Below, in pieces: positions 2,167 to 53,859 of a DNA stretch of 64,000 bases (its first letter is position 1; the number at the start of each line of letters is the position of its first letter). The position numbers were made by a program, and so were the translations under genes. The DNA is taken from NCBI GenBank assembly GCA_963737945.1, contig CAVTUR010000030.1, positions 22,193 to 86,192 of the forward strand, read 5' to 3'. This DNA comes from Blastocatellia bacterium. Lineage in GTDB: Bacteria > Acidobacteriota > Blastocatellia > UBA7656. The notes under the pieces are model-generated. The model was not told where the DNA came from and ran no database searches. It worked only from the letters and a program-made list of their open reading frames with translations.

Positions 2167-2502
2167 ATGTCAGGAGGTACGGACGATCTTCTTCAGGGTA
2201 CTCTCGATCTATTGATCCTCAAGACGCTTGGGCTTGGTTCAAACCATGGGCTAGGGATCGCGACACGCATCAGTCAGATCACCCGGGGCACCTTTCACCC
2301 CAAACCCGGTTCGCTCTTCCCCGCGCTGCATCGGCTGGAGGAGAAGAACTGGCTCGCTTCAGAGTGGGGCGAGTCGGAGAACCGCCGCAAAGCTAAATAC
2401 TACAAACTGACCAAGGTCGGAATGCGTCAGTTGGAAAAAGAAACCGCGAACTGGGAGCGCATAGCCGGCGCGATCTTTCTCGCTCTCGAAGCGACCTCAT
2501 AG
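2167..2502 (+). CDS. PadR-family transcriptional regulator (acidobacterial subfamily)
   Basis: LLQGTLDLLILKTL...HG.GIA.RI...GSLFPALHRLEEKNWLASEWGESENRRKAKYYKLT...G..QL...W. RBS AGGAGG. Lies directly upstream of an ADOP gene. Confidence 0.95.
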   Translation: MSGGTDDLLQGTLDLLILKTLGLGSNHGLGIATRISQITRGTFHPKPGSLFPALHRLEEKNWLASEWGESENRRKAKYYKLTKVGMRQLEKETANWERIAGAIFLALEATS

Positions 2503-2631
2503 CACCCGCGTGCCCGCAGCCTTCGGACACGCCAGACGACGTCCGTGAAACGTCGGTCCGTTGGTTGGTCACCGGTTTTGACTCGTGGCGGAAACAGAAT
2601 TCTTGTCGAATCTCACCCTGGGGAGCTGAAC

Positions 2632-5277
2632 ATGCCTGTGATCTTTCGCCTTCGCAAACTGGCGTCAAACTTGTTTCGCCGAAGCCGCCTCGAACGTGAC
2701 CTCGACGACGAGATGCGCGCACACCTTGCCATGCTGGTGGATGAAAAGATAGCCGCCGGCATGGCTCCTCCAAAAGCCCGGCGAGAGGCGCTCATGGAGT
2801 TCGGAGGGGTCGACCAGGTGAAAGAGCATGTAAGAGACGCGCGGATGGGATCGATGATCGAACAGACCTTGCAGGACACAAGGTATGCGCTGCGGATGCT
2901 GCGAAAGAACCCCTCGTTCACCGCGATCGTTGTGATTACGCTCGCGCTTGGAATCGGGGTGAACACCGCAATCTTCAGTCTCGTTGACGGAATTCTGTTT
3001 CGCCCGCTGCCATATGCGCAACCCGATCGCCTGATCAGGCTGGTCCAATCGCAACGTCAGCTTGGATTGGAGAACTGGAATCTCTCGCAGGCAAGTTTCG
3101 CCGCATTGCGCGATAACAGCCGTTCACTCGAAGCGGTGGCCGCTTATTCAACCGGGGGTGCGAATCTAACTGGAGACAACAGTCCCGAACGGGTCGCCAT
3201 CGTCAACGTGAGCGCAGATTTCTTTGGGGTGCTCGGGCTTCCTCCGATTCTCGGTCGAACCTTCCGCGCCGGCGAGGACATGCCCGGCAACAATAGCGTG
3301 TGTGTTATCAGCTACGGGTTTTGGCAGCGACGGTTTGGCGGCGATTCCAAGATCATTGGCCGAACCCTGAGTCTGAACAGCAAACCGACAGAGGTGGTTG
3401 GGGTAATGCCCGCGGGATTCACCTTTCCTCGCGTTGAAACAGAGATATGGATTCCGCTTGCCTTGAATCCAACCAGGCCCGCGCCGTACTTCCTGAGAGG
3501 GATCGGGCGGCTCGGGACAGGTGTCTCGACGGCAGAGGCCCAGGCGGAAACCACCTCCACGCTTTGGGACTACGCCCGCCAGCACCCGGACATAAGCGAG
3601 AGCAGAGTGCCGCTCGACCAGGGATCCGCGTTGAGAACAATAGTCACGCCGCTGAAGAAGGCAATGGTCGGAGCGACCGAAACACCTCTATTCCTCTTGC
3701 TATGCGCGGTAGGACTGGTGTTGTTGATCGCTTGCGCGAACGTCGCGAACTTGCTGATGGCGCGCGCCACGTCGCGGGTCAGAGAAATCGCGGTGCGCTT
3801 CGCGTTGGGTGCAACCCCGTCTCGGGTTGCCCGGCAACTCCTGACCGAGAGTCTGGTGTTGGCATTCATCGGTGCCGCGGGCGGAGTGATCCTGGCGTGG
3901 CTTGGTGTGCGATTGATCGACACGATGCCCACTGGCGGCATACCCAGGATCGAAGCGGTAACCGTAGACGGACGCGTTCTTGCGTTTACCGCAGTCCTCG
4001 CGGTGCTGACCGGACTGCTGTTTGGTTTGATGCCTGCTCTGCGGGCCTATCGGATGGGGATGGTTGCGGCGATGCACGAAGGAGGGCGCGCCGCCACTTC
4101 CAGAAGCCGGTCAAACAGCGCCCTTGTTGCGGCCCAGTTCACGCTCTCGTTCGTGTTGCTGATCGGCGCGGGGTTGCTTCTGAAGAGTTTCCAGCGCATA
4201 CAATCCGTCGAACTCGGATTCAACCCGAAGGATCTGTTGACGATGTCCGTTGCTCTTTCTGCTGGCAAGTATCCAAAACCCGAACTCTCCCTTCCGTTCT
4301 ACAACGATCTGCTAGATCGACTTCACAATCTTCCGGGGGTGCGCGCGGCGGGTATTACCTCGAATATCCCAATGGCCGGCGATGACAACACGGACAATTT
4401 TATCGTTGAAGGACACGAACCCGCGCCCGGCGATGAAGGGGTACAGACTCAGTTGGTGTCGATGACCCCGGGGAATCTTCGGGCAATGGAGATACCTTTG
4501 TTGCGCGGAAGGGATTTTCTGGAATCAGACACAAGCGACTCGGAACCGATCGCGATAGTGGATGAAACCCTTGCGCGGATGTATTGGCCGGACGGAAACG
4601 CTCTTGGAAAGCGAGTTGAGACCACTGGTGATATGCAATGGATGACCATAGTGGGTGTGGTTGGTGGAATCAAACAAGAGAGTCTGTCGGAGAAGCTGCA
4701 GCCTCATATCTACGTTCCGCTGGCCCAGTCGCCGCCGCTGTGGGCTAAGCTTCTTGTTAGAACCGGAGGGCCGGCGGATCAGGTTGTTGGTACGGTGAGG
4801 GCCACGGTATCCGGCTTGGATCCCGACATCCCGGTGTACTCGATCAGGTCGATGAACGATGTCATCGGTCGGACACTCAACAGCGAGCGCCTGATGAATC
4901 TATTACTGACTTCTTTCTCGACATTGGCATTGCTGCTCGCCGCAGTCGGCATCTACGGGACCATGACACTTTTTGTGGGCAGCCGCAAAAATGAATTTGG
5001 GATACGTCTGGCGCTTGGGGCGCGACCCGGCGCGCTTCTCTTTTCGGTCCTTCGCCAGGGAATGCTCCTGACTGCCGCGGGAGTTGCGATCGGAACCGTC
5101 GGCTCGCTGCTTCTAACGAGGTCTCTTGCCAGTCTGCTGTTTGATGTTAGCCCAACCGATCCCATGATCTTCGTCGGAGTCACGTTGTTGCTGGTGTTTG
5201 TCGCGTTGGCCGCCTGCTATGCTCCGGCGCGCCGAGCATCGCGTGTCGATCCAATGGTGGCGCTGCGCTGCGAATAA
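2632..5277 (+). CDS. ADOP-type duplicated MacB permease with N-terminal prefix extension (~881 aa)
   Basis: Likely start is ATG 2632 after GGGGAG. Prefix [12 protein letters not shown]..., then [39 protein letters not shown], a second lobe, and DPMVALRCE. Confidence 0.95.
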
Positions 5278-10386: not shown

Positions 10387-10609
10387 GTGGAAACGATTTT
10401 TCAAGATATTCGCTATGGGAGTCGCGTACTCCTGAGAAGACCTGCTCTTTTCACCATCATCGCGGTGGCAACGCTCGCGCTTGGCTAGGGGGAACACAGC
10501 GATCTCTAGCGTCGACGACGCGGTACTGCTGCGCAAGCTTCCTTATCCTGATGTGCCCGCACGCCGCGCAACCAGAGTTGATCCCATGGTCGCGCTTCGA
10601 TACGAATGA
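10387..10609 (+). pseudogene. internally deleted ADOP remnant (head fused to tail)
   Basis: GTG-ETIFQDIRYGSRVLLRRPALFTIIAVATLALG-TAG, a frameshift, then NTAISSVDDAVLLRKLPYPD joined directly to [21 protein letters not shown]. Confidence 0.9.
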
Positions 10610-10651: not shown

Positions 10652-13072
10652 ATGAATGGTTTATTTCAAGACGCGCGTTACGGCGTTCGCGTGTTGATCA
10701 AGACTCCTTCATTCACCGTGATCGCGGTGCTCGCCCTTGCGCTTGGCATCGGGGCGAACTGTGCCATTTTCAGCGTGGTGAATGCCCTGCTGATCAGACC
10801 CCTGGCCTATGGACAATCCGATCGTCTGGTAAAAATCAATCACAGGGACTCGACGTCCAGCGCCGACAACGCTGTTTCGCCTCCCGGCTTCGTTGATTAT
10901 CGAGATCAGAGCCACTCGTACGAGAGCATGTCCGCTGTTTACTTAGGCAACACGGCGTTGAACCTCAGCGAGCAGGGGGAGCCTGAGCGGCTTCAGGACG
11001 GACGCGTCTCGGCTAACTTTTTCACAACTCTCGGCGTCCGCCCAATGCTTGGTCGCGCGTTCGTTGCCGAAGAGGATCAGCCCGGGCGAAACCGCGTCGT
11101 AGTCCTCAGCCATAGTCTCTGGCAGAGGCGATTCGCCGGCGATCGTGATCTTGTTGGGAAAAACATCACACTCAATAGCCAGAGCTTTACGATCATCGGT
11201 GTGATGCCTGCCGGCTTTCGGTGGAAGGGCGATGATCTGTGGAGGCCGCTCGCGTTGGCTCCTGAGAGTTTCGCTCCGGATCAGCGCGGGAGTGAGTACC
11301 TCAGCGTTATTGCCCGGCTCAAACCGGACGTAACGGCTGAACAAGCTCAGTCCGAGATGGATGTGATCGCAGACACAATCCGGCAGAACAATCCCGCCTT
11401 TTATTCAGGGGACCCACACTGGGGGGTGGGGGTGACGCCGCTGCGCGAAGACGTTGTCGGCAGCATCAGGCCGGCTCTGCTGGTGCTGCTGGGCGCGGTT
11501 GGACTCGTGCTGCTGATAGCCTGCGCGAACGTCGCCAGCCTGCTGCTCGCCCGCGCAGCCACGCGACAAAAGGAGATCGCTATTCGTGCCGCGCTTGGCG
11601 CGAGCCGTTTCCACCTCGTACGCCAGTTGCTAGTCGAGAGCCTGCTGCTATCGCTGATCAGCGCCGGTCTGGGCCTGTTTCTTGCCGGCTGGGGTATCGA
11701 TCTGCTGGTGGCGATCGGGGGGAATAATATCCCGAGAGCCCAGGAAATAGGCATTGATGCACGAGTTCTCGGATTTACCGGCATGGTTTCGCTCCTGACC
11801 GCGCTGCTCTTCGGTCTGTTACCGGCAATACAGACCTCAAAGACCGATCTCCAGAGTATGCTCAAAGAGGGCGGACGCGGGTCGACCGGAGGCAGACGTC
11901 GCGCGCGCGCGCTGTTGGTCGTTGCCGATGTCGCGATGTCCCTTGTGCTGCTGATTGGCGCCGGTTTGCTCATAAAGAGCTTCGCACGGTTGGAAAATGT
12001 CAGCCCGGGATTTGCGCCTGAAGGTCTCCTGACGATGCAGGTGTCGCTGCCCGCTTTCAAGTACGGCGAGCCGAACCGGGTAAAAGCTTTTTACGATGGA
12101 GTGCTGGACGAGATCAGGTCCGTACCCGGCGTGCTATCGGTTGGCGCAGTTTCCGATTTGCCGTTGAGCGGTTCGGTCCACTCAGGCAGCTTCAACATTC
12201 AGGGTCGGACGATCGCCCCCGGCGAAGATGAGCTTCACGCGGACTTGAGATCGGCGACGCCGGAGTATTTTCAAACGATGAAGATCCCGTTGCTCCGAGG
12301 TCGTTTCTTCACCGAGCAGGACAACCGGGAGGCTCGTCCCGTGGCGATCATTGACGAGACACTGGCCCAGCACTACTTCCACGATGAAGATCCAATTGGG
12401 AAACACGTCGAGTTTCAACGAGGCAAACCGATTTGGCGGGAGATAGTGGGAGTCGTCGGGCACTTGAAGCACAAAGCTTTGGATGTCGAATTCAAGGATC
12501 AACTCTATGCGCCACACGCTCAGTTATCGAATTCAAATATGTTTCTGGTGGTGCGCGCGGCGAATGATCCGATGAGCCTGGCTTCATCGGTGCGCGCCGC
12601 TGTCAAAGCAATCGACAAAGACCAACCCGTTTACAAAGTGATGACAATGGAACAAGTCCTTGAGAATTCGCTGGCGCAAAGGCGACTGTCAGTAATTCTC
12701 TTAGGAGTCTTTGCCGCCGTGGCAATGGTGTTGGCGGCAGTCGGGCTTTACGGTGTGATTTCATTCTCGGTCACGCAGCGCACGAGAGAGATAGGGATCC
12801 GAATGGCGCTCGGAGCGGAGCGGCCCGACATATTCAAGATGGTGGTGAAGCAAGGCCTGACACTTGCTCTTGCTGGAGTTGGTCTTGGTCTGGTGGTCGC
12901 ATTCGCGCTAACCCGACTGATGTCAAGCCTGCTGTTCGGCGTTACTGCTACAGATCCGATGACATTTGCGGTGGTTCCTATGTTGCTTGCAGGAGTGGCC
13001 CTTGGAGCCAGTCTCGTGCCCGCACGCCGCGCAACCAGGGTTGATCCGATGGTCGCGCTTCGATACGAATGA
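10652..13072 (+). CDS. ADOP-type duplicated MacB permease (806 aa), array gene 1
   Basis: QDARYGVRVLIKTPSF, ALGIGANCAIFS, two MacB lobes, DPMVALRYE. RBS GGAGG. Confidence 0.96.
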   Translation: MNGLFQDARYGVRVLIKTPSFTVIAVLALALGIGANCAIFSVVNALLIRPLAYGQSDRLVKINHRDSTSSADNAVSPPGFVDYRDQSHSYESMSAVYLGNTALNLSEQGEPERLQDGRVSANFFTTLGVRPMLGRAFVAEEDQPGRNRVVVLSHSLWQRRFAGDRDLVGKNITLNSQSFTIIGVMPAGFRWKGDDLWRPLALAPESFAPDQRGSEYLSVIARLKPDVTAEQAQSEMDVIADTIRQNNPAFYSGDPHWGVGVTPLREDVVGSIRPALLVLLGAVGLVLLIACANVASLLLARAATRQKEIAIRAALGASRFHLVRQLLVESLLLSLISAGLGLFLAGWGIDLLVAIGGNNIPRAQEIGIDARVLGFTGMVSLLTALLFGLLPAIQTSKTDLQSMLKEGGRGSTGGRRRARALLVVADVAMSLVLLIGAGLLIKSFARLENVSPGFAPEGLLTMQVSLPAFKYGEPNRVKAFYDGVLDEIRSVPGVLSVGAVSDLPLSGSVHSGSFNIQGRTIAPGEDELHADLRSATPEYFQTMKIPLLRGRFFTEQDNREARPVAIIDETLAQHYFHDEDPIGKHVEFQRGKPIWREIVGVVGHLKHKALDVEFKDQLYAPHAQLSNSNMFLVVRAANDPMSLASSVRAAVKAIDKDQPVYKVMTMEQVLENSLAQRRLSVILLGVFAAVAMVLAAVGLYGVISFSVTQRTREIGIRMALGAERPDIFKMVVKQGLTLALAGVGLGLVVAFALTRLMSSLLFGVTATDPMTFAVVPMLLAGVALGASLVPARRATRVDPMVALRYE

Positions 13073-13075
13073 AAT

Positions 13076-13158
13076 TGATTTGCGATTGCCGATTTGCGGT
13101 TGCCGATTTCGGCTTACTCGACTTGGTTCTCGAACACGCAGTCGGCAATCGCAAATCA
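13076..13158. repeat. inverted GATTGCC/GATTTGC heptamer array (element A)
   Basis: GATTTGC GATTGCC GATTTGC GGTTGCC from 13077. Perfect 17-bp inverted repeat TGATTTGCGATTGCCGA (13076-13092) / TCGGCAATCGCAAATCA (13142-13158). Confidence 0.9.
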
Positions 13159-13172
13159 GAACGGATGAAATT

Positions 13173-15611: not shown

Positions 15612-15613
15612 AA

Positions 15614-15780
15614 GGATTTTGGATTTTAGATTTTGGATTTTGGATTGCCCGTGTGCCGGGACCCTTATCGAACCGGGGGCGGTCCGCAATCCAAAATCCA
15701 AAATTCTCGCAGGTGCCGGGACCCTTATCGAACCGGGAGCAGTCCGCAATCCAAAATCCAAAATCTAAAATCCAAAATCC
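15614..15780. repeat. inverted GGATTTT heptamer array with internal 60-bp-period duplication (element B)
   Basis: Perfect 35-bp inverted repeat at 15614-15648 / 15746-15780. A 52-bp direct repeat at 15653-15704 and 15713-15764 has 2 mismatches. Confidence 0.95.
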
Positions 15781-15795
15781 CAGTAGGGGGATAAC

Positions 15796-18219: not shown

Positions 18220-18222
18220 AGA

Positions 18223-18400
18223 CGATTTTGGATTTTAGATTTTGGATTTTGGATTACCTACGTATCGGAATCGTCGATTTTGGATTTTGGATTTTGGATT
18301 ACCCGTGTACCGGATCGTCGATTTTAGATTTTAGATTTTGGGATTTTGGATTGCCCACGTACCGGGATGGTCAATCATCCAAAATCTAAAATCCAAAATC
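18223..18400. repeat. GGATTTT heptamer element with three left arms and one right arm (element C)
   Basis: Units start at 18223, 18275 and 18319. Each is a run of (G/A/C)GATTTT heptamers, then GGATT(A/G)CC..GTA.CGG.AT.GT. The right arm is ATCC AAAATCT AAAATCC AAAATC at ~18377-18400. Confidence 0.93.
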
Positions 18401-18418
18401 ACACTCAGAGGGAAAAAG

Positions 18419-20866
18419 ATGAAAGGGCTTTCCCAGGATCTGCGCTACGGGTTTCGGACTCTTATCAGGAATCCGGGCTTTACGGCTATCGCTGTCGTTT
18501 CGCTGGCTCTCGGTATCGGTGCAAACACGGCGATCTTCAGCGTGGTAAACGCGGTGCTCCTGCGGCCGTTGCCGTTTCATGATCCGGAGCGGCTGGTGAT
18601 GGTCTGGGAAGATGCGTCGGCGATCGGCTTTCCACGCAGTGATGTGGCCGCTGCCAACTACATGGATTGGAAAGCGCAGAACAAGGTGTTTGAGGACATG
18701 GCTCCGCTCAACTGGAAGAGCTTCAATCTCACCGGCGACGGCGAGCCGGAAAGGATTCTCGGTCACGGGGTAACTTCCAATTTTCTTTCGTTGCTCGGTG
18801 TTCAACCGATAATCGGCCGAAACTTTTCTGTCGAAGAAGACAACCCCGACGCGACACGAGTTGCAATTCTCAGCTACGGGCTGTGGCAAGGTCGTTACGC
18901 CGGCGACTCGGCTATTGTCGGGCGCGACATCCTGCTCAACGACGAGAAATTCGCCGTCGTGGGAGTGATGCCCGCGGACTTCCAGGTTTTGCAGGGCGAT
19001 ATCGGTGTGTGGGTCCCTCTCGCTTTAACGCCTCGCCAGATTGCGGATCGTGATAATCACTACCTGACGATTGTAGCTCGAACAAAACCAGGCGTTTCCG
19101 TCAAACAGGCGAACGCGGACATCTTGACTATCTCTCAGCGAATCGCGCGTGACTATCCTGACGATGCCGCCAACCTGAGTTCAGCGGTGGTATCCATGCG
19201 CGAACAACTCGCGGGAAAGGTGCGTCAACCGCTTATCATGTTGCTGGTCGCGGTGGGATTTGTGCTGCTGATTGCGTGCGCCAACATAGCCGGTCTCTTG
19301 TTGTCTCGCGCCACCGCGCGTCGCAAGGAGATAGCCGTTCGGACAGCACTCGGTGCCGGCCGGTGGCGGATTATCCGGCAGTTGCTGACCGAGAGTGTTC
19401 TGCTTGCTGGCGCGGGCGGAGCGCTCGGATTGCTGGTGGCGGTGTGGAGTTTCACACTGCTGAGGCAACTGATTCCCGACGGCATGGTCTATTTGACCGA
19501 CTTGAGTTTCGATCTGCCCGTGGTGTGCTTTGCGATGGCGGTGTCCCTGCTGACCGGGATTGTTTTCGGAATAGCGCCGGCGGTACAAGCCTCCAGAATC
19601 GATCTGAACCAGGCTTTGAAACAGGGCGGAGGGCGCGCGAGCACAGGCGCCGCAGGGAACACGCTCCGCGGGGCATTGGTAATCGTTGAAGTAGCGCTGG
19701 CGATGGTGCTGCTGATCGGAGCCGGGTTGATGATTCGAACCGTTTTCAATCTGCACGGACAATATGCCGTATTTCGACCGGAGAGATTGTTGACGATGAG
19801 AACCACGCTGCCCGACAACAAGTACCGCGATCTGGGCGAGTACGTTGCAAAAGAACATGCTCGGCGCGTCGCGTTCTACGACCAGGTGCTCGAACGGGTT
19901 GGAGCGCTGCCGGGAGTCGTTGGGGCCGGATACACCACTTCAGTACCTCTTGCATGGAAGGGAGGCGCAAACGGTTTCATCCTCGAAGGCCGCCAACCCG
20001 AACCCGGCCTCGTACCAAACGCTATCCAACGCCAGATCAGCACGGCGTACTTCCAGACTCTGGGGATCAGCCTGCGCGAAGGCCGCTACTTTGATGACCT
20101 CGATGGTCCGGAGTCCCGACCCGTCGCGATCATAAATGAGTCGATGGCGCGCGCGTATTGGCCCGACGAGAATGCGGTGGGCAAGCGGTTCAAATTTGGC
20201 ACAACCGGCGCGCCGTGGATGACAATTGTTGGGATCGTCGCCGATGTCCGTCAGATGGGCATGGATGCGCCCGTAAAAGCGGAAATGTATCTGCCCTATC
20301 GCCAGGTCTCTTCGCACCCGTGGTTTGGTCCTCGCGATCTTGTTGTTCGCACTTCCGGGGATCCGATGACTCTTGCTTCAGCAGTACGCCAGGTAATTCG
20401 AACCATCGATCCGAATCAACCGGTCTCGAACATTGGAACGATGGAGGATTTACTCACCAGGGAGACGGGGTCGCGCCGTCTCGGAATGATCTTGTTGTCC
20501 GCGTATGCCGGGCTGGCATTGCTTCTCGCTTCGCTTGGGATCTACGGCGTACTTTCCTACCTTGTCGTGCAACAGACGCCGGAAATAGGAGTGCGCCTTG
20601 CCCTGGGTGCGTTGCCGCGAGACATCCTGGGATTGGTGATCAAGAAGGGCGCCGTCCTTGTTGTGAGCGGGGTAGCGATCGGCGGAATCGCGGCTCTCGC
20701 ACTGACTCGATTGATGGCGAGCCTGCTCTTCGGCGTGAGCGCCGCCGATCCTCTTGTTTTCCTCGGGATTTCGGCGCTGCTGACGGGAGTGGCTCTGGCA
20801 GCCTGTTTCGTGCCGGCTCGCCGGGCGACGAAAGTCGATCCCATGACAGCGCTTCGGTACGAATAG
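18419..20866 (+). CDS. ADOP-type duplicated MacB permease (~815 aa), array gene 4
   Basis: True start [21 protein letters not shown] at 18419; two lobes; DPMTALRYE. Confidence 0.96.
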
Positions 20867-20873
20867 GAAACCG

Positions 20874-23800
20874 ATGACAAACTTATGGCAAGACGTTCGC
20901 TACGGATTCAGGATGCTTCGGAAGCATCCGGGGTTTAGCGCCATTGCGATTGTGACGCTGGCCATGGGTATCGGCGTCAATACGTCGATTTTCAGTATCG
21001 TTAATGCGCTGTTGTTGCGCCCGATACAATTCAAGGACTCGGATCGGCTGGTTCTGTTTTGGAACCACTATCCGGGATTGGAGATCCCGCAGGACTGGCT
21101 TTCGCCCGGCGAATACACCGACGTGAAAGCCCAGTCGGATGTGTTTGAAGAGATGACGATCGCCAACGGCGGAAGCATCAACCTCAACGACGCCGGTGCT
21201 CCTGAGCGAGTCGAAGGCATTCGGGCGTCCTCGAGTTTCTTTTCATTGTTGAATATTCAACCTGTTCAGGGCCGCGCCCTGCTGCCGGACGAAGACGAAC
21301 CGGGCAAGCCGCCCACTGCCGTCATCAGCCACCGGTTGTGGCAGCGTCGATTCGGCGCAGATCCTAACTTCGTCGGCAAGACGATCTCGCTCAATGGCCA
21401 GCCGACGACAGTTGTAGGCGTTCTTCCTGCGAGCCTCTCTCTCGATAAGGAGATGCTGCCTACGGTCGCGGGGATTGAACGGGTCGATGTCATACGGCCA
21501 CTTGCCCTGGACGACGAAGACAGAAGCAATCACGCAAGTGATAACTACACTGTTATGGCACGCCTCAAACCCGGCGTTTCGATGGGCGAGGCGCAAGTCC
21601 AGGTCGACACGATAGTCGCGCGGCTCCAGCTGGCGTATCCGAAGAGTTACCCAGCAACCAGCGGATTCGCGGTAGGCGTGGTTCCGATGCTCGAGCAAGT
21701 CGTGGGCGGTGCCCGGCCCGCCGTTCTGATGTTGTTTGTGGCGGTCGGGTTCGTGTTACTCATTGCCTGCGCGAACGTCGCCAACTTGCTTCTTGCGCGA
21801 GCAGTCGGGCGAGAAAAAGAGTTTTCAATTCGCACCGCTCTCGGGGCAGGGCGTCTGCGCCTCATTCGCCAGTTGCTCGTCGAAAGCATGTTGCTCACGC
21901 TTGCGGCGACGTTAGCGCTGGGCATAGGCGCCAACACCGCGATCTTCAGCGTGGTCAATGCGATGATGCTAAAACCGCTTCCCTATTCGGACCCGACTCG
22001 GCTGGTTTCGGCAGGCTCGGTAAACAGTCTGAATCCGCAAGGTGAGGTCGATGGAGTATCGCCGGCGGATTTCTGGGACTGGAAGGATCAGAGCACGTCG
22101 TTTGAGCAACTCGCCGCTCTATCTGGTGGCGGCGGATTCAGCTTAAAAGACGCGGATCAACCGGATGTCTTCAGTGGCGCACGAGTGTCCTTCAATTTCT
22201 TTCAAACCTTTGGTGTGCAGCCGCTGCTGGGCCGTGCCTTCTCCGCCGAAGACGGGCAGCTCCACGCGCCCGAAACTGTAGTGTTGAGTCACAGGCTCTG
22301 GATGCGACGCTTTGGCGGTGACCCGGCGGTCGTTGGAAAGACTTTCAACAACGCTGACGGCGGTACGACGGTGATCGGAGTGATGGCGCCCGACTTCAAC
22401 TTTCCAAGCTACGCCGACGTATGGGTACCGCTCGCGCGCAACTCAGGCGAGATGCGCAACCGGTCCAATCGCTACTTCAGTGTTGTTGGAAGGATCAGAG
22501 CCGATCAGTCGATTGAAAGCGCCGAAGCTGAGCTTGAGACCATCGCCAGTCGATTGGAGGCCGAGCACCCGCAAGCAAACAGGGGATGGACCGCGCACCT
22601 GACGCCGCTGCGAGACAATGTGATGGGTAGCGTGAGGACTGCGCTGTTCGTGCTGCTGGGTGCGGTCGGTTGTGTCCTGCTCATCGCGTGCACAAACGTC
22701 GCGAATCTGCTGCTCGCTCGCGCGGCGTCGAGGCGGAGGGAGATGGCGATTCGGCTCGCGCTCGGCGCCGGCCGCGCCAGGATCATGAGGCAGTTGCTCA
22801 CCGAAAGCCTGGTGCTTGGCATCGCGGGCGGCGCCATCGGGTTGGCGTTTGCAGTGTGGGGTCTGGACCTGCTGATCGGAATTCTGCCCTCCAGGGAGGC
22901 ATTCCAACTCCCGGTCGAGATCCGCATCGATCGAATGGTCATGTTGTTGACCCTTGCCGTCTCGGCCCTCACCGGGATTGTGTTTGGCCTCGTCCCCGCA
23001 TGGCAGGCGTCACGGCCCGATGTTGGCGAGTGGCTGAAAGAAGGCGACCGCTCTGGATCGAGCGCCGGTCACAAGCGAACTCGCAGCGCTCTGGTCGTCG
23101 CTGAAATTGCTATTGCTCTTGTCTTGCTTGTCGGCGCCGGGCTGCTTGTCCAAAGCTTCGTCAGGTTGAGACACGTTGATCTCGGATACGACCCGATTGG
23201 TCTGATGACGATGTGGGTGCCGGCGTCGCCAGCCAGATATCCCGACAATGAAACTAAGGCGCGGTTCTATAAGCGGCTCCTCGAACGGGTTTCTCAAGTT
23301 CCCGGCACAGAAGACGTCGCGTTGAGCTCGGCGCCGTGGTTCGGCTTTCTCAATTTTCAATTCAACATCGCTGACGAAACGTTGCCGGCCGGCGATGCCA
23401 CCGTTCGTTACAGCTCAATCGCCCCGGACTACTTCAGGGTGCTCAGAGCTCAAGTTCGCTCCGGTCGCGATTTCGATGATCGGGATGACAGCAGAGCTCC
23501 GAGCGTCGCAATCATCAATGAAGCTCTTGCGCGGCGGTACTTCCCGGAGGGCAGTCCGATCGGAAGAAGGATTGTGATTGGGTATCTTGGCCGCAGATTG
23601 ACACCCGAGATAGTTGGCGTATCGGCGGACATCAAACAAGAGGAATTGGGGGCGCCAACAAAACCCGAAGTATACGTTCCATATCAGCAGGTCCCCTGGC
23701 TGGGAGCAGCACTAGTAATTCGCGCTGCGAGGGGTGACCCGATGACCCTAAAGAAAGACCTGCAGCAGGCGATTTGGGAAGTCGACAAGGACCTTCCGGT

Positions 23801-24242
23801 TTCCGAGGCGTCAACGGTCGAGGGGCACCTGTCGGATCTCGTGGCCGAGCCTCGGCTGTACACGTTGCTGCTCGGTGCGTTCGCGACTGCCGCGTTGATT
23901 CTTGCCTCGATTGGGATCTACGGTGTTATGTCGTATTCGGTAACCGAACGTACACGCGAGATAGGCATTCGCATGGCGTTGGGTGCGAAGCGTCTGGATG
24001 TGCTTACGTTCGTGGTGAGGCAGGGTTTGTTACTGGCGGTGACTGGCGTGGCGATCGGCGTTGTGTTGGCTTTCGCGTTGACTAGAGTGATTTCGAGCCA
24101 GCTGTACGGCATCTCTGCCACCGACCCGTTGACCTTTACATTGATACCGTTGCTGCTTGCATCGGTGACCGTGGCGGCCTGTTTTGTGCCGGCGCGTCGC
24201 GCAACGAAAGTCGATCCGATGATCGCACTGCGATGCGAATGA
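20874..24242 (+). CDS. chimeric ADOP permease (1122 aa; half unit fused to a near-complete unit), array gene 5
   Basis: Contains the head motif twice (MGIGVNTSIFS near residue 30 and [11 protein letters not shown] near residue 348) and [15 protein letters not shown] twice. The junction reads RQLLVESMLLTLAA|[14 protein letters not shown] at ~21897-21915. Confidence 0.92.
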   Translation: MTNLWQDVRYGFRMLRKHPGFSAIAIVTLAMGIGVNTSIFSIVNALLLRPIQFKDSDRLVLFWNHYPGLEIPQDWLSPGEYTDVKAQSDVFEEMTIANGGSINLNDAGAPERVEGIRASSSFFSLLNIQPVQGRALLPDEDEPGKPPTAVISHRLWQRRFGADPNFVGKTISLNGQPTTVVGVLPASLSLDKEMLPTVAGIERVDVIRPLALDDEDRSNHASDNYTVMARLKPGVSMGEAQVQVDTIVARLQLAYPKSYPATSGFAVGVVPMLEQVVGGARPAVLMLFVAVGFVLLIACANVANLLLARAVGREKEFSIRTALGAGRLRLIRQLLVESMLLTLAATLALGIGANTAIFSVVNAMMLKPLPYSDPTRLVSAGSVNSLNPQGEVDGVSPADFWDWKDQSTSFEQLAALSGGGGFSLKDADQPDVFSGARVSFNFFQTFGVQPLLGRAFSAEDGQLHAPETVVLSHRLWMRRFGGDPAVVGKTFNNADGGTTVIGVMAPDFNFPSYADVWVPLARNSGEMRNRSNRYFSVVGRIRADQSIESAEAELETIASRLEAEHPQANRGWTAHLTPLRDNVMGSVRTALFVLLGAVGCVLLIACTNVANLLLARAASRRREMAIRLALGAGRARIMRQLLTESLVLGIAGGAIGLAFAVWGLDLLIGILPSREAFQLPVEIRIDRMVMLLTLAVSALTGIVFGLVPAWQASRPDVGEWLKEGDRSGSSAGHKRTRSALVVAEIAIALVLLVGAGLLVQSFVRLRHVDLGYDPIGLMTMWVPASPARYPDNETKARFYKRLLERVSQVPGTEDVALSSAPWFGFLNFQFNIADETLPAGDATVRYSSIAPDYFRVLRAQVRSGRDFDDRDDSRAPSVAIINEALARRYFPEGSPIGRRIVIGYLGRRLTPEIVGVSADIKQEELGAPTKPEVYVPYQQVPWLGAALVIRAARGDPMTLKKDLQQAIWEVDKDLPVSEASTVEGHLSDLVAEPRLYTLLLGAFATAALILASIGIYGVMSYSVTERTREIGIRMALGAKRLDVLTFVVRQGLLLAVTGVAIGVVLAFALTRVISSQLYGISATDPLTFTLIPLLLASVTVAACFVPARRATKVDPMIALRCE

Positions 24243-24245
24243 ACT

Positions 24246-24305
24246 GATTGCCGATCGGCAATTGCCGATTGCCGATTGAAGGAGAAATCCCTGGCATTCG
24301 GCAAT
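24246..24305. repeat. GATTGCC heptamer array with degenerate inverted arm (element D)
   Basis: GATTGCC GATCGGC AATTGCC GATTGCC GATTGAA (24246-24280); GGCATTC GGCAAT (24293-24305). Confidence 0.8.
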
Positions 24306-24316
24306 ATAAGGGGACT

Positions 24317-26776: not shown

Positions 26777-26779
26777 AGA

Positions 26780-26874
26780 GATTGACGATTGCCGATTGGC
26801 GATTGCCGATTGAAAGAAGAAGCGTGATCTATCTTCAATCGCAAATCGGCAATCGGCAATCGCGTATCGGCAAT
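26780..26874. repeat. inverted GATTGCC heptamer array (element E)
   Basis: Five left heptamers at 26780-26814 (GATTGAC GATTGCC GATTGGC GATTGCC GATTGAA). Right arm TTCAATC GCAAATC GGCAATC GGCAATC GCGTATC GGCAAT. Confidence 0.92.
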
Positions 26875-26886
26875 GGGAGGAAATCA

Positions 26887-41597: not shown

Positions 41598-44399
41598 TTA
41601 CAGCTCTACCTTACGCAGTCGCAACGCGTTGCCGATGACCGACACTGAGCTGAAACTCATCGCGGCGCTTGCGATCATAGGACTCAACAGAAGCCCAAAC
41701 ACTGGATAGAGCGCTCCAGCAGCGATGGGGATTCCAAGAGCGTTATAAATGAACGCGAAGAAAAGATTCTGCCGGATGTTGCCCATGGTCGCCCGGCTCA
41801 GCTTGCGTGCGCGCGCGATGCCCCTCAGGTCGCCCTTTAAGAGGGTGATGCCCGCGCTCTCGATAGCCACGTCCGTGCCCGTGCCCATCGCAATTCCAAC
41901 CTGAGCCTGAGCCAGGGCCGGCGCATCGTTTACGCCGTCGCCGGCCATCGCCACCAGGCGACCCTGAGCCTGGAGACGTTTCACCACCTCGCCCTTCTGT
42001 TTGGGCAAAACGTCGGCTTCAAAGTCATCTATGCCCAGCTTTCGAGCGACCGCCTCGGCAGTCGTCCGATTATCGCCGGTGACCATTACGATGCGTATCC
42101 CATCCTCGTGCAGCTCTCGAATTGCCTCGGCCGTAGACTCCTTGATCGGATCAGCAACGGCCAGCAAACCGGCGAGCCGGCCGTCCACGGCGACAAACAT
42201 CACCGTCTCGCCCTCTTTGCGCAAAGCTTCTGCGCGCTCGCTCAAACTGCCAGCATCGATTTTCAGTTGCTCCAGCAGCTTGCTATTGCCGAGGGCAACA
42301 AGGTGACCGTCGATCTTTCCAACAACGCCCTTTCCGGTTATGGATTGAAAGTCCTCGGCTTCAGACAGCTCCAATTCTCTCTGTTCCGCGCCGGCTATGA
42401 TTGCCGCGGCCAGCGGATGCTCGCTTCCCCGCTCGATGCTGGCGGCCAGCCGCAACAACTCCGACTCACCAATCCCATTCAAAGGCAGCACCGAGGTAAG
42501 TCGGGGTTTGCCTTCGGTCAACGTACCGGTCTTATCCACAATGAGCGTGTCGATCTTCTCCAGCACCTCGAGGGCTTCTGCATTCTTGATGAGCACGCCT
42601 GCTGTAGCGCCGCGGCCTGTTCCCACCATGATCGACATCGGCGTCGCAAGCCCCAGCGCGCACGGGCACGCGACTATCAGCACAGCTACCGCATTGACGA
42701 TGGCGTGGGCCAGCCGTGGCTCAGGTCCTGCGAGACTCCACACGACAAACGTGATGATGGCCGACACAATGACGGCCGGAACAAAGTAGGATGAGACCGT
42801 ATCGGCGAGACGCTGAATCGGGGCGCGGCTGCGTTGAGCCTCGCTCACCATCCGGACGATCTGAGCCAGAAGCGTTTCGCTGCCGACCCGCTCCGCACGC
42901 ATTATGAAGCTGCCTGTTCCATTGACAGTACCACCCGTGACCTTATTCTCTTTGCTCTTCTCCACGGGAATGGACTCGCCGGTCACCATCGACTCGTCTA
43001 CGGAACTCTTGCCTTCGAGGATTATTCCATCCACGGGGACCTTTTCTCCGGGGCGAACTCGGAGCGTGTCACCCGGTTTAATGACATCCAAAGAGATCTG
43101 TTCTTCTGCCCCGTCATCGCGGATGACTCTCGCGGTTTTGGGAGACAGTCCGAGCAGGGCTTTGATCGCGCTGCTCGTCTTGCTGCGCGCCCGCAGTTCG
43201 AGAACCTGTCCCAACAGCACCAAAACGACGATCACCGCGGAGGTTTCAAAATAGACCCCTACTTGACCGCCGTGCCCGCGCAACGAAGCCGGGAAGATGC
43301 TCGGAAAGAAGGTAGCAATGACGCTATACCAGTAGGCCACTCCGGTGCCGATGGCGATGAGCGTGAACATATTGAGGCTCCGATTGACGATCGAGGCCCA
43401 ACCTCGCTGAAAAAACGGCCAGCCTCCCCACAACACGACAGGTGTTGCGAGGGCCAACTGGAAAAGCGTAAGCAACCGCATCGAGACCGCGTGCTGCAGG
43501 GGCTGACCCGGGATCAAATCCGACATCGCGACGAGGAGCAACGGGGCGGTCAGATACAAGCCGATCTTGAACCGGCGGGTCATATCTTCGAGCTCTTCGT
43601 TCTTCTCTTCACCGCCACCGACGGTTCTTGGTTCCAGGGCCATTCCGCAAATCGGACACGAGCCAGGCGCCTCCCTCACGATCTCCGGGTGCATCGGGCA
43701 GGTGTATTCCGTTCTAGTCGCTGGAATTGAAACCGATGGTGGGTCAAGGGCCATGCCACACTTAGGACATGAGCCTCGTCCCGGCCGGTGAACCTCCGGA
43801 TGCATCGGGCAGGTGTACTCCCCTTTAGTCTTCGACGGGGTAATAACCAGGGGTTCCAGCGACATCCCACACTTGGGGCATGCGCCGGGGCTGCTTTGGT
43901 GAACCTCCGGGTGCATTGGGCAGCTAAATTCGGATTTCGGCGGCGCCGGTCCACTGCCCGGGAGTTCAAGCGACATCCCACACTTCGGGCATTTTCCCGG
44001 ATTGCTTTGGTGAACTTCGGGGTGCATCGGGCAGCTATATTCGGGTTTCGCCGGCGCCGGTCCAGTGCCTGAGAGTTCAAGCGACATCCCGCACTTGGGG
44101 CATTTGCCCTGATGCCTCTGGTGAACCTCCGGATGCATTGGGCAGCCATATTCAGGCTGTATCTGCGCGGCTCGAGGGTCTAACCTTTGGAGTAACATTC
44201 CGCACTTCGGACATGCGCCCGGAGTCGCCTGGTGAACCTCCGGATGCATCGGGCAGGTGTATTCCGCATTCCCGGCCGGCGAAGCGGGCACCATCGAATC
44301 AAGAGCCATCCCACACTTCGGGCACGACCCCGGGCTATCCTGGCGAACCTCCGGGTGCATAGGGCAGATGTGTTCGTTGCTGTTCTTTTCAGCGTCCAT
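41598..44399 (-). CDS. copA: Cu(I)/Ag(I)-translocating P1B-type ATPase with seven N-terminal CPMHPE..CPxCGM repeats
   Basis: [33 protein letters not shown] (TM7) and MSFSS (TM8), the P1B-1 signatures. Confidence 0.95.
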
Positions 44400-44424
44400 C
44401 GATCTCCGTTGTCATCCTGTGTTC

Positions 44425-44442
44425 TGTGAGCCGAAGCTCACA
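44425..44442 (-). other. perfect hairpin with C(UUCG)G tetraloop just upstream of copA
   Basis: The minus strand reads TGTGAGC-TTCG-GCTCACA, 26 nt before the copA ATG. Confidence 0.55.
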
Positions 44443-44656
44443 AGTGCAACAGGTCGGCTTATGACTCGGCGCAGCTTATCGTTTACCTTGCTAGCCGTCG
44501 ACGAGCCTGGAATTGCCAATTTGCGGTTCTCGCGAGTCACCTTACTTTCATTCGAGCCCGCAGTGAAATGCTAAGAGCAAGGCTACGACGAAGCGCGTGT
44601 TCGAGCGCTCGAGCCCTCGTCTCTTTGCGTCTGTTTCTCGTGAGCCCTGGACGTTT

Positions 44657-45382
44657 TCACTGCACCAGGATTTTTCCGCGCAGCATACCAATACCGCAAG
44701 TAAAGGCAAATTCGCCCGACTTACGCGGCGTGAGCTGAATGACAACCGGTTCGTTCAACGGTAGCTCTTGCTTTTTGTCATAGTCAGGAATCAACACCGC
44801 GGTACCGCAGGTAGTCTTTGACTCACGCACAAAGGTAATGCGAGCCGTAACACCCCGCTTTAGTTCCAGGCTGGCCGGTTCATATCCACCGTCTGTCACC
44901 TTGACGGTGAACGCCTGGATCTCGGAGTCATCCTGGCCGGCGGGTTTCTGGTGTTGGGCGAATGGTTGCTTTGCTTCCGACTCAACGACTTCAATGGAGT
45001 CTACTTTGAGATACCGCTTGCCGTCAGCTTCACGCGTAATTCCAGTGGCTTTCACCTGTTTAGCAATGTAGTCGAGCCAGTCCCCTCGTTGTGGCGCCAG
45101 TTTGCCCGTCTCAAGCAAATACAGCGTGATTCCGTTCGCGCCCGCAACGGCGAGCGCTTGTGCCTTGCCCTTCCTGGCACAGTCCACGGCACACTTCAGA
45201 TCGCCGTCGTTGCCGTATGGGGTCACCTTTCGATCTGCTTCGAACCAGCACGAAGAGCAAACCACCTGCCCTTCAAGCGTAACCGAAGCCTCGGCCTTTT
45301 CCTGAGCTATCGTTGCGTTGCCAAACAGCGCAAGCGTCACACACAACGCAATGCTGATCAATAACAATTTCTTCGTTCTCAT
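44657..45382 (-). CDS. secreted Cys-motif protein with C-terminal cupredoxin-like domain
   Basis: Start MRTKKLLLISIAL... after AGGAGA. GQVVCSSCW...CAVDCARKG, then VKVTDGGYEP..LELKRG...TCG...FTCGIGMLRGKILV. Confidence 0.8.
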   Translation of the reverse strand: MRTKKLLLISIALCVTLALFGNATIAQEKAEASVTLEGQVVCSSCWFEADRKVTPYGNDGDLKCAVDCARKGKAQALAVAGANGITLYLLETGKLAPQRGDWLDYIAKQVKATGITREADGKRYLKVDSIEVVESEAKQPFAQHQKPAGQDDSEIQAFTVKVTDGGYEPASLELKRGVTARITFVRESKTTCGTAVLIPDYDKKQELPLNEPVVIQLTPRKSGEFAFTCGIGMLRGKILVQ

Positions 45383-45431
45383 TGTTCTTCTCCTCTGTTG
45401 ATATGATCCCGACCTCCTGGTCTCTCTGAGG

Positions 45432-47312
45432 TCAGTGATGCATCTTCCCCGGCCGGAAGCGCAAGAAGACATGAAAGCTCGTCGGGTTTGAACCGTAGCC
45501 TGACTCTAAGGCTGTTGGCACGTGGTAGACCGTCACATCCGCCCCAACACCCACTCGCAGTTTGGTGTCGGCAATGATGTCGCGCACTCCTCCAAAAGTA
45601 AATGCGCCAACCCGAAAGGACTGCTCAAAGCGGTCGCCTATTTGGAAGCCACCTCCGATCGGGTGAAACCCATCAAGACCCGGTCGGCCGAATATGTTTT
45701 CCTCGAGCAGTCCTTGCTTGTCCACCAGCTCCATCCTCGTGTACAGGTAGTTCCTATCAAGAAAGTTCGCCGTCGACTCGAGCAAATAGGCGTTCGAGTT
45801 ACCGTGACGCTCGTGATTGCGGCCCCAGATCAGACTCGACGCCCAGTTCCCATCATCCCACGAACGATTGTGAGAAACCGAGGCAGTCACCCGCCGCAGG
45901 ATGCCAGGTTCGAGTATTTCCGGATTGACCAGGTGGCCATACGAAACCTGCATCGTCCAGTCCGGTGTTGGCGTAAACCAGACTCGACCGCTCCATGAAT
46001 CGAGCTTGCCCATTTCAATGTCTTTGCGATTCTCATCGGGCTCTGCACCGCGAAATAGCGAGCTTTCAACCCGGAATCGCCACGCTGTCACTCCGGCAGT
46101 GATCACCCCGTGGCTTATGTGTGTGGAGTCTTGCCAATGATGTCCAAGCGGCGCCGCCGGATTCTCCGCCGCCGACATTCGATGCATGAATGCCGTCGGC
46201 CCGAGCGCCGGCTCGGCGACAGGCCCGCCGTAGAAGTTGAGAGCGACATGCTCGGACAACCTAATGTTGTAGGCGGCAGCGAGTTCCATAAAGAGGTCGT
46301 GCGGGTGTTGGGCGTCGATGATGGGCCGCCCCTCGAAGGTTTCTCCTGTCTGGAAAAGCTCAGGAAAGCCGCGCCTCGGTGTAGTCCACGGTTCGGCTGA
46401 AACCATTCCGCGCAACATCAACTGACCCACGCCTGCCTTTCGCTCCGCCATGATCATAAACCAGTTTTGCGACTCAGCCTTGTTCACACCGCGCGGACCG
46501 CCCTGATGATTGAACCCCGCGATCAGGTTGCCGTGAGCCATGATCATCCAGTCATCTTTCATCCAATGCCACATATGTCCCGGCGCGCTCGCCGGCATGA
46601 GGCTAGTCCCCGAACCGACGGCAGACATGGAGCGAAACGGCCCGCCGGTGATCGTGCTCATCATTGCACTCATGTCATGCCCTGTGTGCGCGTCGCCAGT
46701 ACCCGCCTTCTCCGTGCCCATTGTCGACATGTCGTGCCCTGTGTGCGCGTCCTGAGTGCCTGCCTTCTCCTTGTCCATCGTCGACATGTCATGAGCCTCG
46801 GGCTCCGGATGGTGGTGTTCATCTCCGTTGCCATCGCCATGCTTGTGGCGTGCACTCGGAGGCACTGCTGCTTCGAGCTTTTTTCTACCTTCGGGTGTGA
46901 GCTTTGGAAGTGCCCTGAGAAACAAGATCGTCTGCCAAATCTCCGTCGGGTTGTGAGTCTTACCAAAAGCCGGCATGGCTGTGCCTGGAACGCCGCGAGA
47001 AATCTGGCGAAACAATTCGGCATCCGATCTAGACTGCACCTTGCCGGAAGTAAGGTCGACCGCGCCGACAGCTCTCCCCTTCTCGATATCGGCTTTGCCG
47101 GTTGAGCCATGACAGCTAGCACAGTGCGCGTCAAAGTGGTCGAGCCCCAATGCTGTGTTCTTCTCGGTCGGATGAAGCGGGTTTCCGGTCTGAGGCCCAT
47201 TCGTAAGCGAGACGGCGTACGTAGTTCCCCGGTGTACGAAGTGTCCTGGCGCCAGTGCGGAAACCACAATCATTACCGCGAGCCTGATGACCCGCGTCTG
47301 CTGCGACCTCAC
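45432..47312 (-). CDS. cytochrome c / His-Met-rich linker / probable outer-membrane beta-barrel fusion protein
   Basis: Probable GTG start at 47312 after AAGGAG. CASCH heme motif with GTAMPAF distal Met; HKHGDGNGDEHHH and HDMS repeats; aromatic-rich beta region (GFNHQGGPRG, QHPHDLFMEL, HHWQDSTHI) ending HVFLRFRP. Confidence 0.75.
   Translation of the reverse strand: MRSQQTRVIRLAVMIVVSALAPGHFVHRGTTYAVSLTNGPQTGNPLHPTEKNTALGLDHFDAHCASCHGSTGKADIEKGRAVGAVDLTSGKVQSRSDAELFRQISRGVPGTAMPAFGKTHNPTEIWQTILFLRALPKLTPEGRKKLEAAVPPSARHKHGDGNGDEHHHPEPEAHDMSTMDKEKAGTQDAHTGHDMSTMGTEKAGTGDAHTGHDMSAMMSTITGGPFRSMSAVGSGTSLMPASAPGHMWHWMKDDWMIMAHGNLIAGFNHQGGPRGVNKAESQNWFMIMAERKAGVGQLMLRGMVSAEPWTTPRRGFPELFQTGETFEGRPIIDAQHPHDLFMELAAAYNIRLSEHVALNFYGGPVAEPALGPTAFMHRMSAAENPAAPLGHHWQDSTHISHGVITAGVTAWRFRVESSLFRGAEPDENRKDIEMGKLDSWSGRVWFTPTPDWTMQVSYGHLVNPEILEPGILRRVTASVSHNRSWDDGNWASSLIWGRNHERHGNSNAYLLESTANFLDRNYLYTRMELVDKQGLLEENIFGRPGLDGFHPIGGGFQIGDRFEQSFRVGAFTFGGVRDIIADTKLRVGVGADVTVYHVPTALESGYGSNPTSFHVFLRFRPGKMHH
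46671..46793 (-). repeat. 57-bp tandem repeat encoding His/Met-rich 19-aa units
   Basis: CATGTC(A/G)TG at 46671, 46728 and 46785. The protein reads HDMSTMDKEKAGTQDAHTG / HDMSTMGTEKAGTGDAHTG / HDMSAMM. Confidence 0.9.
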
Positions 47313-47401
47313 AGAGTTCTCCTTCCATAAAAACAATTCACATTTTCCTTCGGCGATTCTTCTCGCCTTTCATTAATCTTTGCCAAAGTGCCTGCAGAGC
47401 A

Positions 47402-49093: not shown

Positions 49094-49111
49094 CGCCTCG
49101 CGCTTCGATTG

Positions 49112-49186
49112 TCCGACAAACTTCAGTTTGTCGTTCCAATTCGTCGGCTCACTCCTCGCAATTTCGACAAACTGAAGTTTGTCGGA
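49112..49186. repeat. REP doublet (REPIN-like), same family as element J (element K)
   Basis: TCCGACAAACTTCAGTTTGTCG (49112-49133) and its exact reverse complement CGACAAACTGAAGTTTGTCGGA (49165-49186). Each copy is itself a hairpin. Confidence 0.92.
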
Positions 49187-49187
49187 C

Positions 49188-50585: not shown

Positions 50586-50586
50586 A

Positions 50587-50653
50587 TTCTTTGCGTTCTG
50601 TGCGAAGAGAATTCTCCGCGCCAAGGCGCCAAGAACCGCAAAGAACGCAAAGA
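50587..50653. repeat. inverted CGCAAAGA octamer element (element L)
   Basis: TCTTTGCGTTCTGTGCG (50588-50604) versus CGCAAAGAACGCAAAGA (50637-50653), a 16/17 inverted match. Confidence 0.85.
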
Positions 50654-50658
50654 CAACC

Positions 50659-53600: not shown

Positions 53601-53859
53601 CCGATTGCCCGCGAACCGCTCTGACCCCGGGCAAGCCTTGCAGCACCGTGGTCAGCGGATACGTAACCTGGTCCTCGACCTCTTGCGGGCTGCGGCCAAT
53701 CCAATCGCTAAAGACGATCACCTGGTTATCGGACAGATCCGGGATCGCATCGACCGGAGTCCGGATAAGTGCCCAGTAGCCCCACCCCGCGAGCAGCACG
53801 TATGCCGCGACGATGATAAAGCGGTTCTTGAGAGAGAATTCTATAATGCGATTGATCAT
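50659..53859 (-). CDS. cusA: CusA/SilA-type heavy-metal RND efflux pump
   Basis: [36 protein letters not shown]. Met positions in GDLMYMP, PVDMNET and RIEMLTTG match the CusA Cu/Ag Met triad context. Confidence 0.92.

Follow-up and report, generated by a model that had tools for sequence, protein, structure and literature searches.

ADOP chimera in a tandem permease array

The DNA analysed here, a stretch of 64,000 nucleotides (nt) referred to as the window, covers positions 22193-86192 of contig C30 of the Blastocatellia bacterium draft genome (7.3 Mb, 33 contigs) and carries a tandem array of ADOP genes. The names of the nearest database relatives point to an acidobacterium of the Blastocatellia/Pyrinomonadaceae type. 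ADOPs ('acidobacterial duplicated orphan permeases') were, as cited in PMC3914696, first noted by Ward et al. (2009). One gene of the array is a single open reading frame (ORF) of 1122 amino acids (aa) on the + strand, with the ATG at 20874 and the stop codon at 24240-24242, in which the head of one ADOP (gene A, aa 1-344, 20874-21905) runs in frame into a nearly complete second ADOP (gene B, aa 345-1122 and the stop codon, 21906-24242). The interpretation to which we lean is that this chimera is a genuine, lineage-specific gene which arose recently by an out-of-register (illegitimate) deletion in the tandem array, and of which the B core works while the head is a passenger. New here is the singleton chimeric ADOP; the permease family itself is already known.

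Three MacB_PCD (periplasmic core domain, PCD) matches were found in the chimera with Pfam, at aa 22-246, 344-556 and 738-955, together with three FtsX matches, of which the first is partial (aa 289-351, profile positions 2-64 of 120) and the other two are complete (aa 598-714 and 1002-1115). The partial FtsX domain (21738-21926) belongs to A and comprises its second transmembrane helix (TM2), the coupling helix and the first turns of the would-be TM3. The head, as delimited by Pfam, hydropathy and homology to a full-length A gene on a contig of a relative (L184), consists of an N-terminal amphipathic helix, TM1 (aa ~24-47), a periplasmic core domain, TM2 (aa ~280-302) and a cytoplasmic coupling helix (aa ~303-337). 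The B part, delimited by Pfam, TIGR03434, orthologues and AlphaFold2, is an ADOP core with eight TM helices, two periplasmic domains and two full FtsX domains. TIGR03434, the NCBIfam model for ADOPs, matched aa 342-1122 over profile positions 21-803 with 1327.7 bits against a cutoff of 622.3, and the NCBIfam YbbP model aligned aa 259-360 to its region of TM8, coupling helix and TM9. The whole chimera corresponds to 2.4 ADOP units with three PCDs and 10 TM helices in 1122 aa, compared with ~806-820 aa for the neighbours in the host array once true starts are applied. Since the canonical two-unit layout of ~800 aa is found only in aa 345-1122, the chimera is an ADOP derivative rather than a canonical member.

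The motif that precedes TM1 in ADOPs, M..L.QDLRYG.RML.K.PGFT, is located at the N-terminus of the chimera and comes from A (MTNLWQDVRYGFRMLRKHPGFS), while the B core has lost its own copy of this conserved motif and lacks profile positions 1-20. The single ORF, Pfam, TIGR03434 and the alignments all agree with the first-pass annotation in that an A head runs in frame into a near-complete B. B had been thought to be short by its first ~23 aa, which was not borne out, as alignment to B orthologues gave ~27 missing residues. Upstream of the chimera (20864-20873), the stop codon TAG of the preceding ADOP gene (20864-20866) overlaps a Shine-Dalgarno-like AGGA motif (20865-20868) and is followed by a spacer of 7 nt. 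Scanning for promoters and terminators gave nothing informative within the chimera gene.

The junction, ACG CTT GCG GCG ACG TTA GCG (TLAATLA), could be read at 21897-21917 exactly as described before. Homology to A reaches Ala344 (GCG, 21903-21905) and homology to B starts at Ala345/Thr346, equivalent to residues ~27-29 of the orthologues. The chimera thus tracks A through QLLVESMLLTLA (Ala344) and then B from (A)TLALGIGAN. Over the corresponding stretch the A orthologue in L184 reads QLLVESLLLALAGSAAG, and A-type homologues have (L/M)(L/M)LALAGGG. The two junction codons GCG ACG are a poor fit to either parent, and from these alignments the switch would be placed at GCG|GCG (Ala344/Ala345), where the parents share a few bases at most. 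The tripeptide TLA had been proposed as the microhomology at which the genes fused. This had to be abandoned, since both TLA copies survive, whereas a microhomology-mediated deletion keeps only one. Head and core are mutually only 41% identical at the protein level, which shows that two distinct paralogues were joined; an internal duplication was rejected as the origin on the same ground.

Genes A and B in relatives

A query of 200 aa spanning the junction, which admits short proteins, retrieved P0387, a protein of 336 aa that is 82% identical to aa 1-333 of the chimera. It is encoded on contig L184 (ENA ERZ1760238, 8.8 kb), where an orthologue of the gene upstream of the chimera (window gene 18338, 78-81% identity) is followed after 8 nt by A. 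The called A gene of L184 ends after LRLIRQ by a one-base frame change, and the next frame (KLLVESLLLALAGSAAG...) adds ~480 aa; once this frame change is read through, A of L184 is full-length (~820 aa). The matching spacers behind the upstream gene, of 7 nt in the window and 8 nt in L184, argue that the upstream junction of the chimera is ancestral and that A was a resident full-length gene. On L184 the upstream ADOP (2-2456) and A (2465-4931) are each split by a single frame change; that in A lies ~10 codons before the position matching the fusion junction, which is possibly a coincidence. Behind A, L184 carries a different ADOP, X (52% identical to window gene 26782), and a partial ADOP gene, and no B orthologue was found after A and X before the contig ends.

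Other A-type homologues of the head are ADOPs of ~820 aa with 60-65% identity. None of those in L003, L010, L011 and L012 (60-65%) adjoins B. Among 53 family genomes, no A orthologue above 63% identity was found, and the matches in congeners were at most 55% identical. In the genome itself, the best paralogue of the head is 51% identical and no donor was identified, which argues against a recent copy-paste event; a recent copy from a resident donor was rejected for this reason.

The B part is 75-84% identical to unfused single-copy orthologues, exactly one of which is present in 10 of the 14 congeners (species representatives). In the congeners the open frames of B orthologues are 770-877 aa long, and an open frame of 1131 aa was found only in this genome. 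Dozens of B orthologues have 803-804 aa (71-82% identity) and start with MDTLLRDLRYGF; none has an N-terminal extension. In L002, a contig from a JGI metagenome, B (81%) is preceded by the orthologues of window genes 15796 (87%) and 18338 (82%), with a spacer of 85 nt full of heptamer repeats ahead of B. The same pair was observed in G005, where the orthologue of the upstream gene is directly followed by B.

The region just 5' of B is variable among congeners. In G007 (L180, G007:C45 6496-9172) a truncated ADOP head of ~100 aa, followed by LTXXQ/Spy-like, extracytoplasmic function (ECF) sigma and anti-sigma-like ORFs, precedes B, and in G009 (L183, G009:C216 7400-9100) an ORF of 246 aa on the opposite strand is located upstream of B. 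Similar Metal_resist/LTXXQ and sigma-70 genes were observed downstream of the array in L001.

Judged from these comparisons, the chimera probably originated by deletion from a resident A gene. The first-pass annotation had proposed a ~1.4-kb deletion between two adjacent genes. The origin by deletion is supported by the full-length A in L184 and the unfused B in congeners, whereas adjacency and size remained unproven. Had A and B been neighbours, about 1.6-1.8 kb would be missing (476 A codons, the spacer and 27 B codons), and given the presence of X after A in L184, more than the A tail and the B head may have been lost. In the proposed sequence of events, the ancestor would have carried full-length A directly behind the upstream ADOP (18419-20866) and B further downstream. 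The deletion would have taken A from codon ~345, all sequence between the two genes and B up to codon ~27, and the ends would have met at Ala344/Ala345 over no more than a few bases of microhomology. The product would consist of an N-terminal add-on (TM1 of A, a third MacB-type periplasmic domain, TM2 of A and the A coupling helix) in front of a complete 8-TM, two-domain core, and the event would be evolutionarily recent.

Topology and predicted structure

A hydropathy scan with a span of 19 residues gave ten hydrophobic segments, at aa ~24-47, 280-302, 336-365, 589-607, 646-664, 689-712, 741-759, 997-1023, 1051-1069 and 1087-1105. Segments 1, 3 and 7 each lead into a loop of ~225 aa, and the short loops rich in K/R and both termini lie on the opposite side; the 10-TM topology of the chimera satisfies the positive-inside rule. 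According to hydropathy, charge distribution and AlphaFold2, the third segment is a hybrid TM helix (aa ~336-365, 21879-21968), which starts from TM3 of A and continues with the remainder from TM1 of B. Because the A coupling helix normally precedes the in-to-out TM3 and TM1 of B also runs in-to-out, the downstream segments of the chimera are not inverted. The earlier proposal that TM1 of B takes the position of TM3 of A in the same orientation, with the topology kept, was therefore confirmed by hydropathy and charge distribution, and the 10-TM, three-domain layout that it had suggested is self-consistent by hydropathy and Pfam.

For structure prediction, AlphaFold2 was run on 91 sequences. 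MAFFT placed all homologues on one of the two homologous blocks, the head or the first half of B, in every combination, and aa 8-332 were modelled without alignment depth. The model of the chimera had a mean predicted local distance difference test score (pLDDT) of 77 and a predicted template modelling score (pTM) of 0.69. The B core was predicted with pLDDT values of 80-97, the hybrid helix was continuous at 339-365 (65-79) and the extra periplasmic domain had moderate values (70-87). The best Foldseek matches were E. coli YbbP (9GE6), MacB and LolCDE with a probability of 1.00, and MacB was also matched when phmmer was run against PDB sequences. The type VII fold, a bundle of four TM helices with a periplasmic domain in the TM1-TM2 loop and a coupling helix that connects TM2 to TM3, was found for the two core units, while the N-terminal unit consists of TM1, PCD, TM2 and coupling helix only.

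In the fused protein, the A coupling helix would occupy the place of the N-terminal amphipathic helix of B, both being cytoplasmic interfacial elements in front of an in-to-out TM helix. The core would fold as a pseudo-dimeric type VII permease, with the extra hairpin packed peripherally and the third periplasmic domain alongside. It would then work as an ordinary ADOP, i.e., a type VII ABC-like (ATP-binding cassette) mechanotransmission permease, and the add-on would be a tolerated passenger. The chances that the B core is still functional are judged to be about even. There is no evidence in favour of a new function for the chimera.

Alternative explanations

Several observations weigh against a recent deletion with a working B core. 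A followed by B was seen in no relative: the unfused A-B pair, a search for which the first-pass annotation had suggested, was looked for and not found, and since the gene after A in L184 is X and not B, both the size of the deletion and its one-step nature are inferred. The chimeric protein is a singleton, as a search with the whole protein gave only ~800-aa matches and an exact look-up returned no record. When metagenome and genome contigs were scanned with the junction peptide, no locus across the junction was present among the matches listed, and a protein search for short fragments gave no fragment across it. In the AlphaFold2 model, the two extra TM helices and the A coupling helix had pLDDT values of only 30-50, in the stretch without alignment depth. 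Furthermore, ~10 of the ~46 full-length ADOP loci in the assembly need one to several frame changes, among them six in one array at C6:47154-75067 and others at C26:18645-23529, C31:12464-14900 and C18:300366-305388, which reflects either widespread pseudogenisation or indel errors of the assembly. Finally, an in-frame outcome is expected by chance in 1/3 of cases.

Alternatively, the fusion would be real but the gene dead: a young by-product of turnover in the array, in frame by chance, of which the product is misfolded or unused and which will decay as other broken ADOPs do. This is unlikely, although it survives best among the rival explanations. The one in three chance of an open frame and the frame changes in at least about ten of the ~46 ADOP loci agree with it, as do a scar with a stop codon and a frameshift in the same array, the loss of the conserved N-terminal helix of B, and the failure of the architecture to spread to any relative examined. 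The B branch is also somewhat longer (0.90) than those of the nearest orthologues (0.72-0.75), within an orthologue range of up to 1.0. On the other hand, all 1122 codons are open without a frameshift, and both parts have ratios of nonsynonymous to synonymous substitution (dN/dS) as low as intact neighbours, with no rate excess in the head, which is still compatible with a recent death.

The dN/dS of the head versus the A gene of L184 was 0.07 (dN 0.11, dS ~1.5), compared with 0.07-0.13 for intact neighbours and the B part versus their orthologues. In Tajima-type relative-rate counts with seven outgroups, 15-19 changes fell on the branch of this genome and 13-17 on that of L184 (chi2 <1). The head violated 21 of 133 near-invariant columns, compared with 15-21 within its own subclade, and had a root-to-tip distance of 1.04 (subclade range 0.77-1.05). 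The GC content at third codon positions (GC3) of the head, 0.68, equals that of the rest of the array. The low dN/dS and the lack of a rate excess point either to a recent fusion or to continuing constraint on the head, and an old decaying relic does not fit; neutral drift of the head would have lasted for no more than a few percent of the interval since L184 split off. A long-term decay of the head was rejected by dN/dS, relative rate, conserved columns and root-to-tip distance, statistics which exclude only long neutral decay (roughly >5% of the branch) and do not separate a recent event from constraint.

A working and selected architecture, an asymmetric '2.5-unit' permease with 10 TM helices and three periplasmic domains in which the add-on alters binding or the coupling to its ATPase, is improbable. 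Here, the third periplasmic domain and the extra coupling helix would bring a new substrate, partner or regulation. The preserved topology is in line with this, the purifying-selection statistics of the head are indistinguishable from those of a functional gene, and other 10-TM type VII permeases exist (YbbP and BceB; PMC12646458), as do other odd ADOP fusions. However, the architecture is present in one genome only. The best 150 representatives among 73,444 relatives all have 790-906 aa, and none is thus longer than 906 aa. Nor is it obvious where a third stalk pair would fit in the pseudo-dimeric core. All other ADOP frames in this genome and its relatives are about 770-1010 aa long, which shows that the chimera does not result from the misreading of a normal gene by chance.

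The other ADOP-ADOP fusions in public data are P0135 (1221 aa), P0044 (1544 aa) and P0053 (1763 aa). Like the chimera, all three consist of two ADOP genes in one frame, and P0135 also has three MacB_PCD domains. Unlike the chimera, they have other breakpoints, with the first unit cut after TM6 or TM7; their identity is ~41-45% and the junction is not shared. Of other three-domain ADOPs of ~1100 aa, for which the first-pass annotation had suggested a search, one with three PCDs (P0135) was thus found and none with this junction. In P0135 and P0044 the second unit begins at residue ~20 (GFTAVAV...), within the best-conserved DNA motif of ADOPs, a start that would suit recombination or assembly chimeras. 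P0044 has a first unit that stops behind TM7, so that its second unit would be inverted. With differing breakpoints and at least one inconsistent topology, these fusions look like accidents or artefacts and may represent either independent events or assembly artefacts, which speaks against a selected architecture.

It is very improbable that the deletion merely reflects an assembly artefact in which the A head was wrongly joined to B, with both genes intact in the real genome. The singleton protein has no independent assembly support, the 33-contig draft with its many frameshifted ADOP loci hints at imperfect sequence quality, and paralogue arrays are classic sites of assembly error. Yet no exact repeat was found across 21895-21915 and none of more than 24 nt within 21700-22100, the longest shared strings nearby being 22-24 nt at 21762 and 21927-21939. 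With no repeat across the junction and the two sides only 41% identical, the parents are too divergent to collapse and there is nothing on which an assembler could collapse them. The sequence that would have been skipped is absent as well: the A tail, the B head with its spacer and X all lack an orthologue elsewhere in the 33 contigs. In addition, the join is in frame, inside a helix and at a topologically equivalent point. The junction is very probably real.

Least probable of all is an origin by insertion. In this reading, template switching or illegitimate recombination would have put a ~1-kb foreign or distant A-type piece in place of the hairpin spacer and codons 1-27 of B, and the ancestor would have had the gene order of L002 and G005 (upstream gene, then B). 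These closest syntenic loci indeed have no A between the two genes, and no congener or family A orthologue exceeds 63% identity. However, L184 has a full-length A exactly here with the same 7-8-nt coupling, so that the upstream junction predates the fusion; the genome contains no donor copy, and the head does not differ from the array in composition.

Array context and turnover

Seven co-oriented ADOP genes are located at about 10.6-29.3 kb of the window, and three more at 2.5-8.7 kb and 32.3-34.8 kb. Heptamer repeats of the GATTTTG, GATTGCC and GCGGATT types form long inverted arms in the spacers 13073-13172, 15612-15795, 18220-18418, 24243-24316 and 26777-26886. The 7 nt in front of the chimera are the sole array spacer without such a hairpin element. 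An element of this kind is also located in front of the B orthologue in L002 (5979-6063), which indicates that such hairpins are conserved in ADOP arrays.

A dead ADOP remnant was identified at ~10387-10609, in which ~55 head codons, interrupted by a stop codon and a frame change, run into a gene tail; the last 18 residues of this tail match the end of the next gene exactly (10652-13072). Together, this scar, the events in G007 and G009 and the odd fusions show that deletions and insertions at gene boundaries are common in ADOP arrays. An in-frame outcome that preserves the topology may then be the chance result of one in a few such events.

Two further loci on the - strand of the window were observed. 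A copper/silver-type efflux cluster (41598-53859) encodes a P-type ATPase with seven heavy-metal-binding repeats, two cupredoxin-domain proteins, a cytochrome c protein, a CusB-like adaptor fused to a cupredoxin domain, an outer-membrane factor and a resistance-nodulation-division (RND) pump. At 55228-62964 an ORF for a giant surface protein of 2578 aa was found, with FG-GAP, Ig-like, DUF11/CLIPPER, P-domain and HYR repeats; in L002, a comparable giant CLIPPER/HYR protein is encoded behind the ADOP array.

Significance and comparison with known systems

In soil Acidobacteriota, few paralogue families are as large as those of the ADOP permeases, the function of which is unknown; the literature on them contains almost nothing past their existence. 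The locus described here is a dated and anatomically clean snapshot of array turnover, in which the chimera can be compared with unfused B, full-length A and dead scars. It shows that out-of-register deletions occur and can by chance yield chimeras with preserved topology. If the protein were functional, the type VII fold would tolerate an extra N-terminal stalk and domain module, and the chimera would be a natural construct to address the role of the ADOP N-terminal helix and of the coupling helices. If it were even selected, MacB-type modules could be added at the N-terminus without breaking the machine. Since the event was found in one genome and comes with no evidence of function, the locus is of illustrative more than of mechanistic value.

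Compared with ADOPs as defined by TIGR03434, the core of the chimera has the same two tandem units of TM helix, MacB_PCD and FtsX, and the gene likewise lies in a tandem array of paralogues. It differs by the additional head of 344 aa, which contributes a third periplasmic domain, two TM helices and a third coupling helix, and by its length of 1122 aa versus ~800-820 aa. The chimera contains no ATPase domain, and no ABC_tran domain was detected when the ORFs of the window of at least 250 aa were scanned with Pfam, small ORFs being only partly covered. Among the large ORFs checked, the gene is thus an orphan in the sense of the family name, with no fused or adjacent ABC ATPase gene.

With MacB of the MacAB-TolC system and with LolC/LolE (PDB 5NIK, 5LIL, 5GKO and 7ARH), the chimera shares the four-TM unit, the Porter/Sabre periplasmic domain that separates TM1 from TM2 and the coupling helix that leads from TM2 to TM3. 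Unlike these proteins, it has no fused ATPase, and a single chain contains two and a half units, whereas they form homo- or heterodimers of single units. YbbP of the E. coli YbbAP-TesA complex (PDB 9GE6), the closest structural match of all, is a single chain with two MacB-like halves, 10 TM helices and coupling helices after TM2 and TM8 (PMC12646458). In YbbP and BceB, the extra pair TM5-6 forms a central linker and at most two periplasmic domains are present, at TM1-2 and TM7-8 (PMC12646458). The extra TM pair of the chimera, in contrast, is N-terminal and belongs to a truncated copy of a unit with its own third periplasmic domain, and the large loops are located at TM1-2, TM3-4 and TM7-8, an arrangement that sets it apart from permeases of the YbbP/BceB type.

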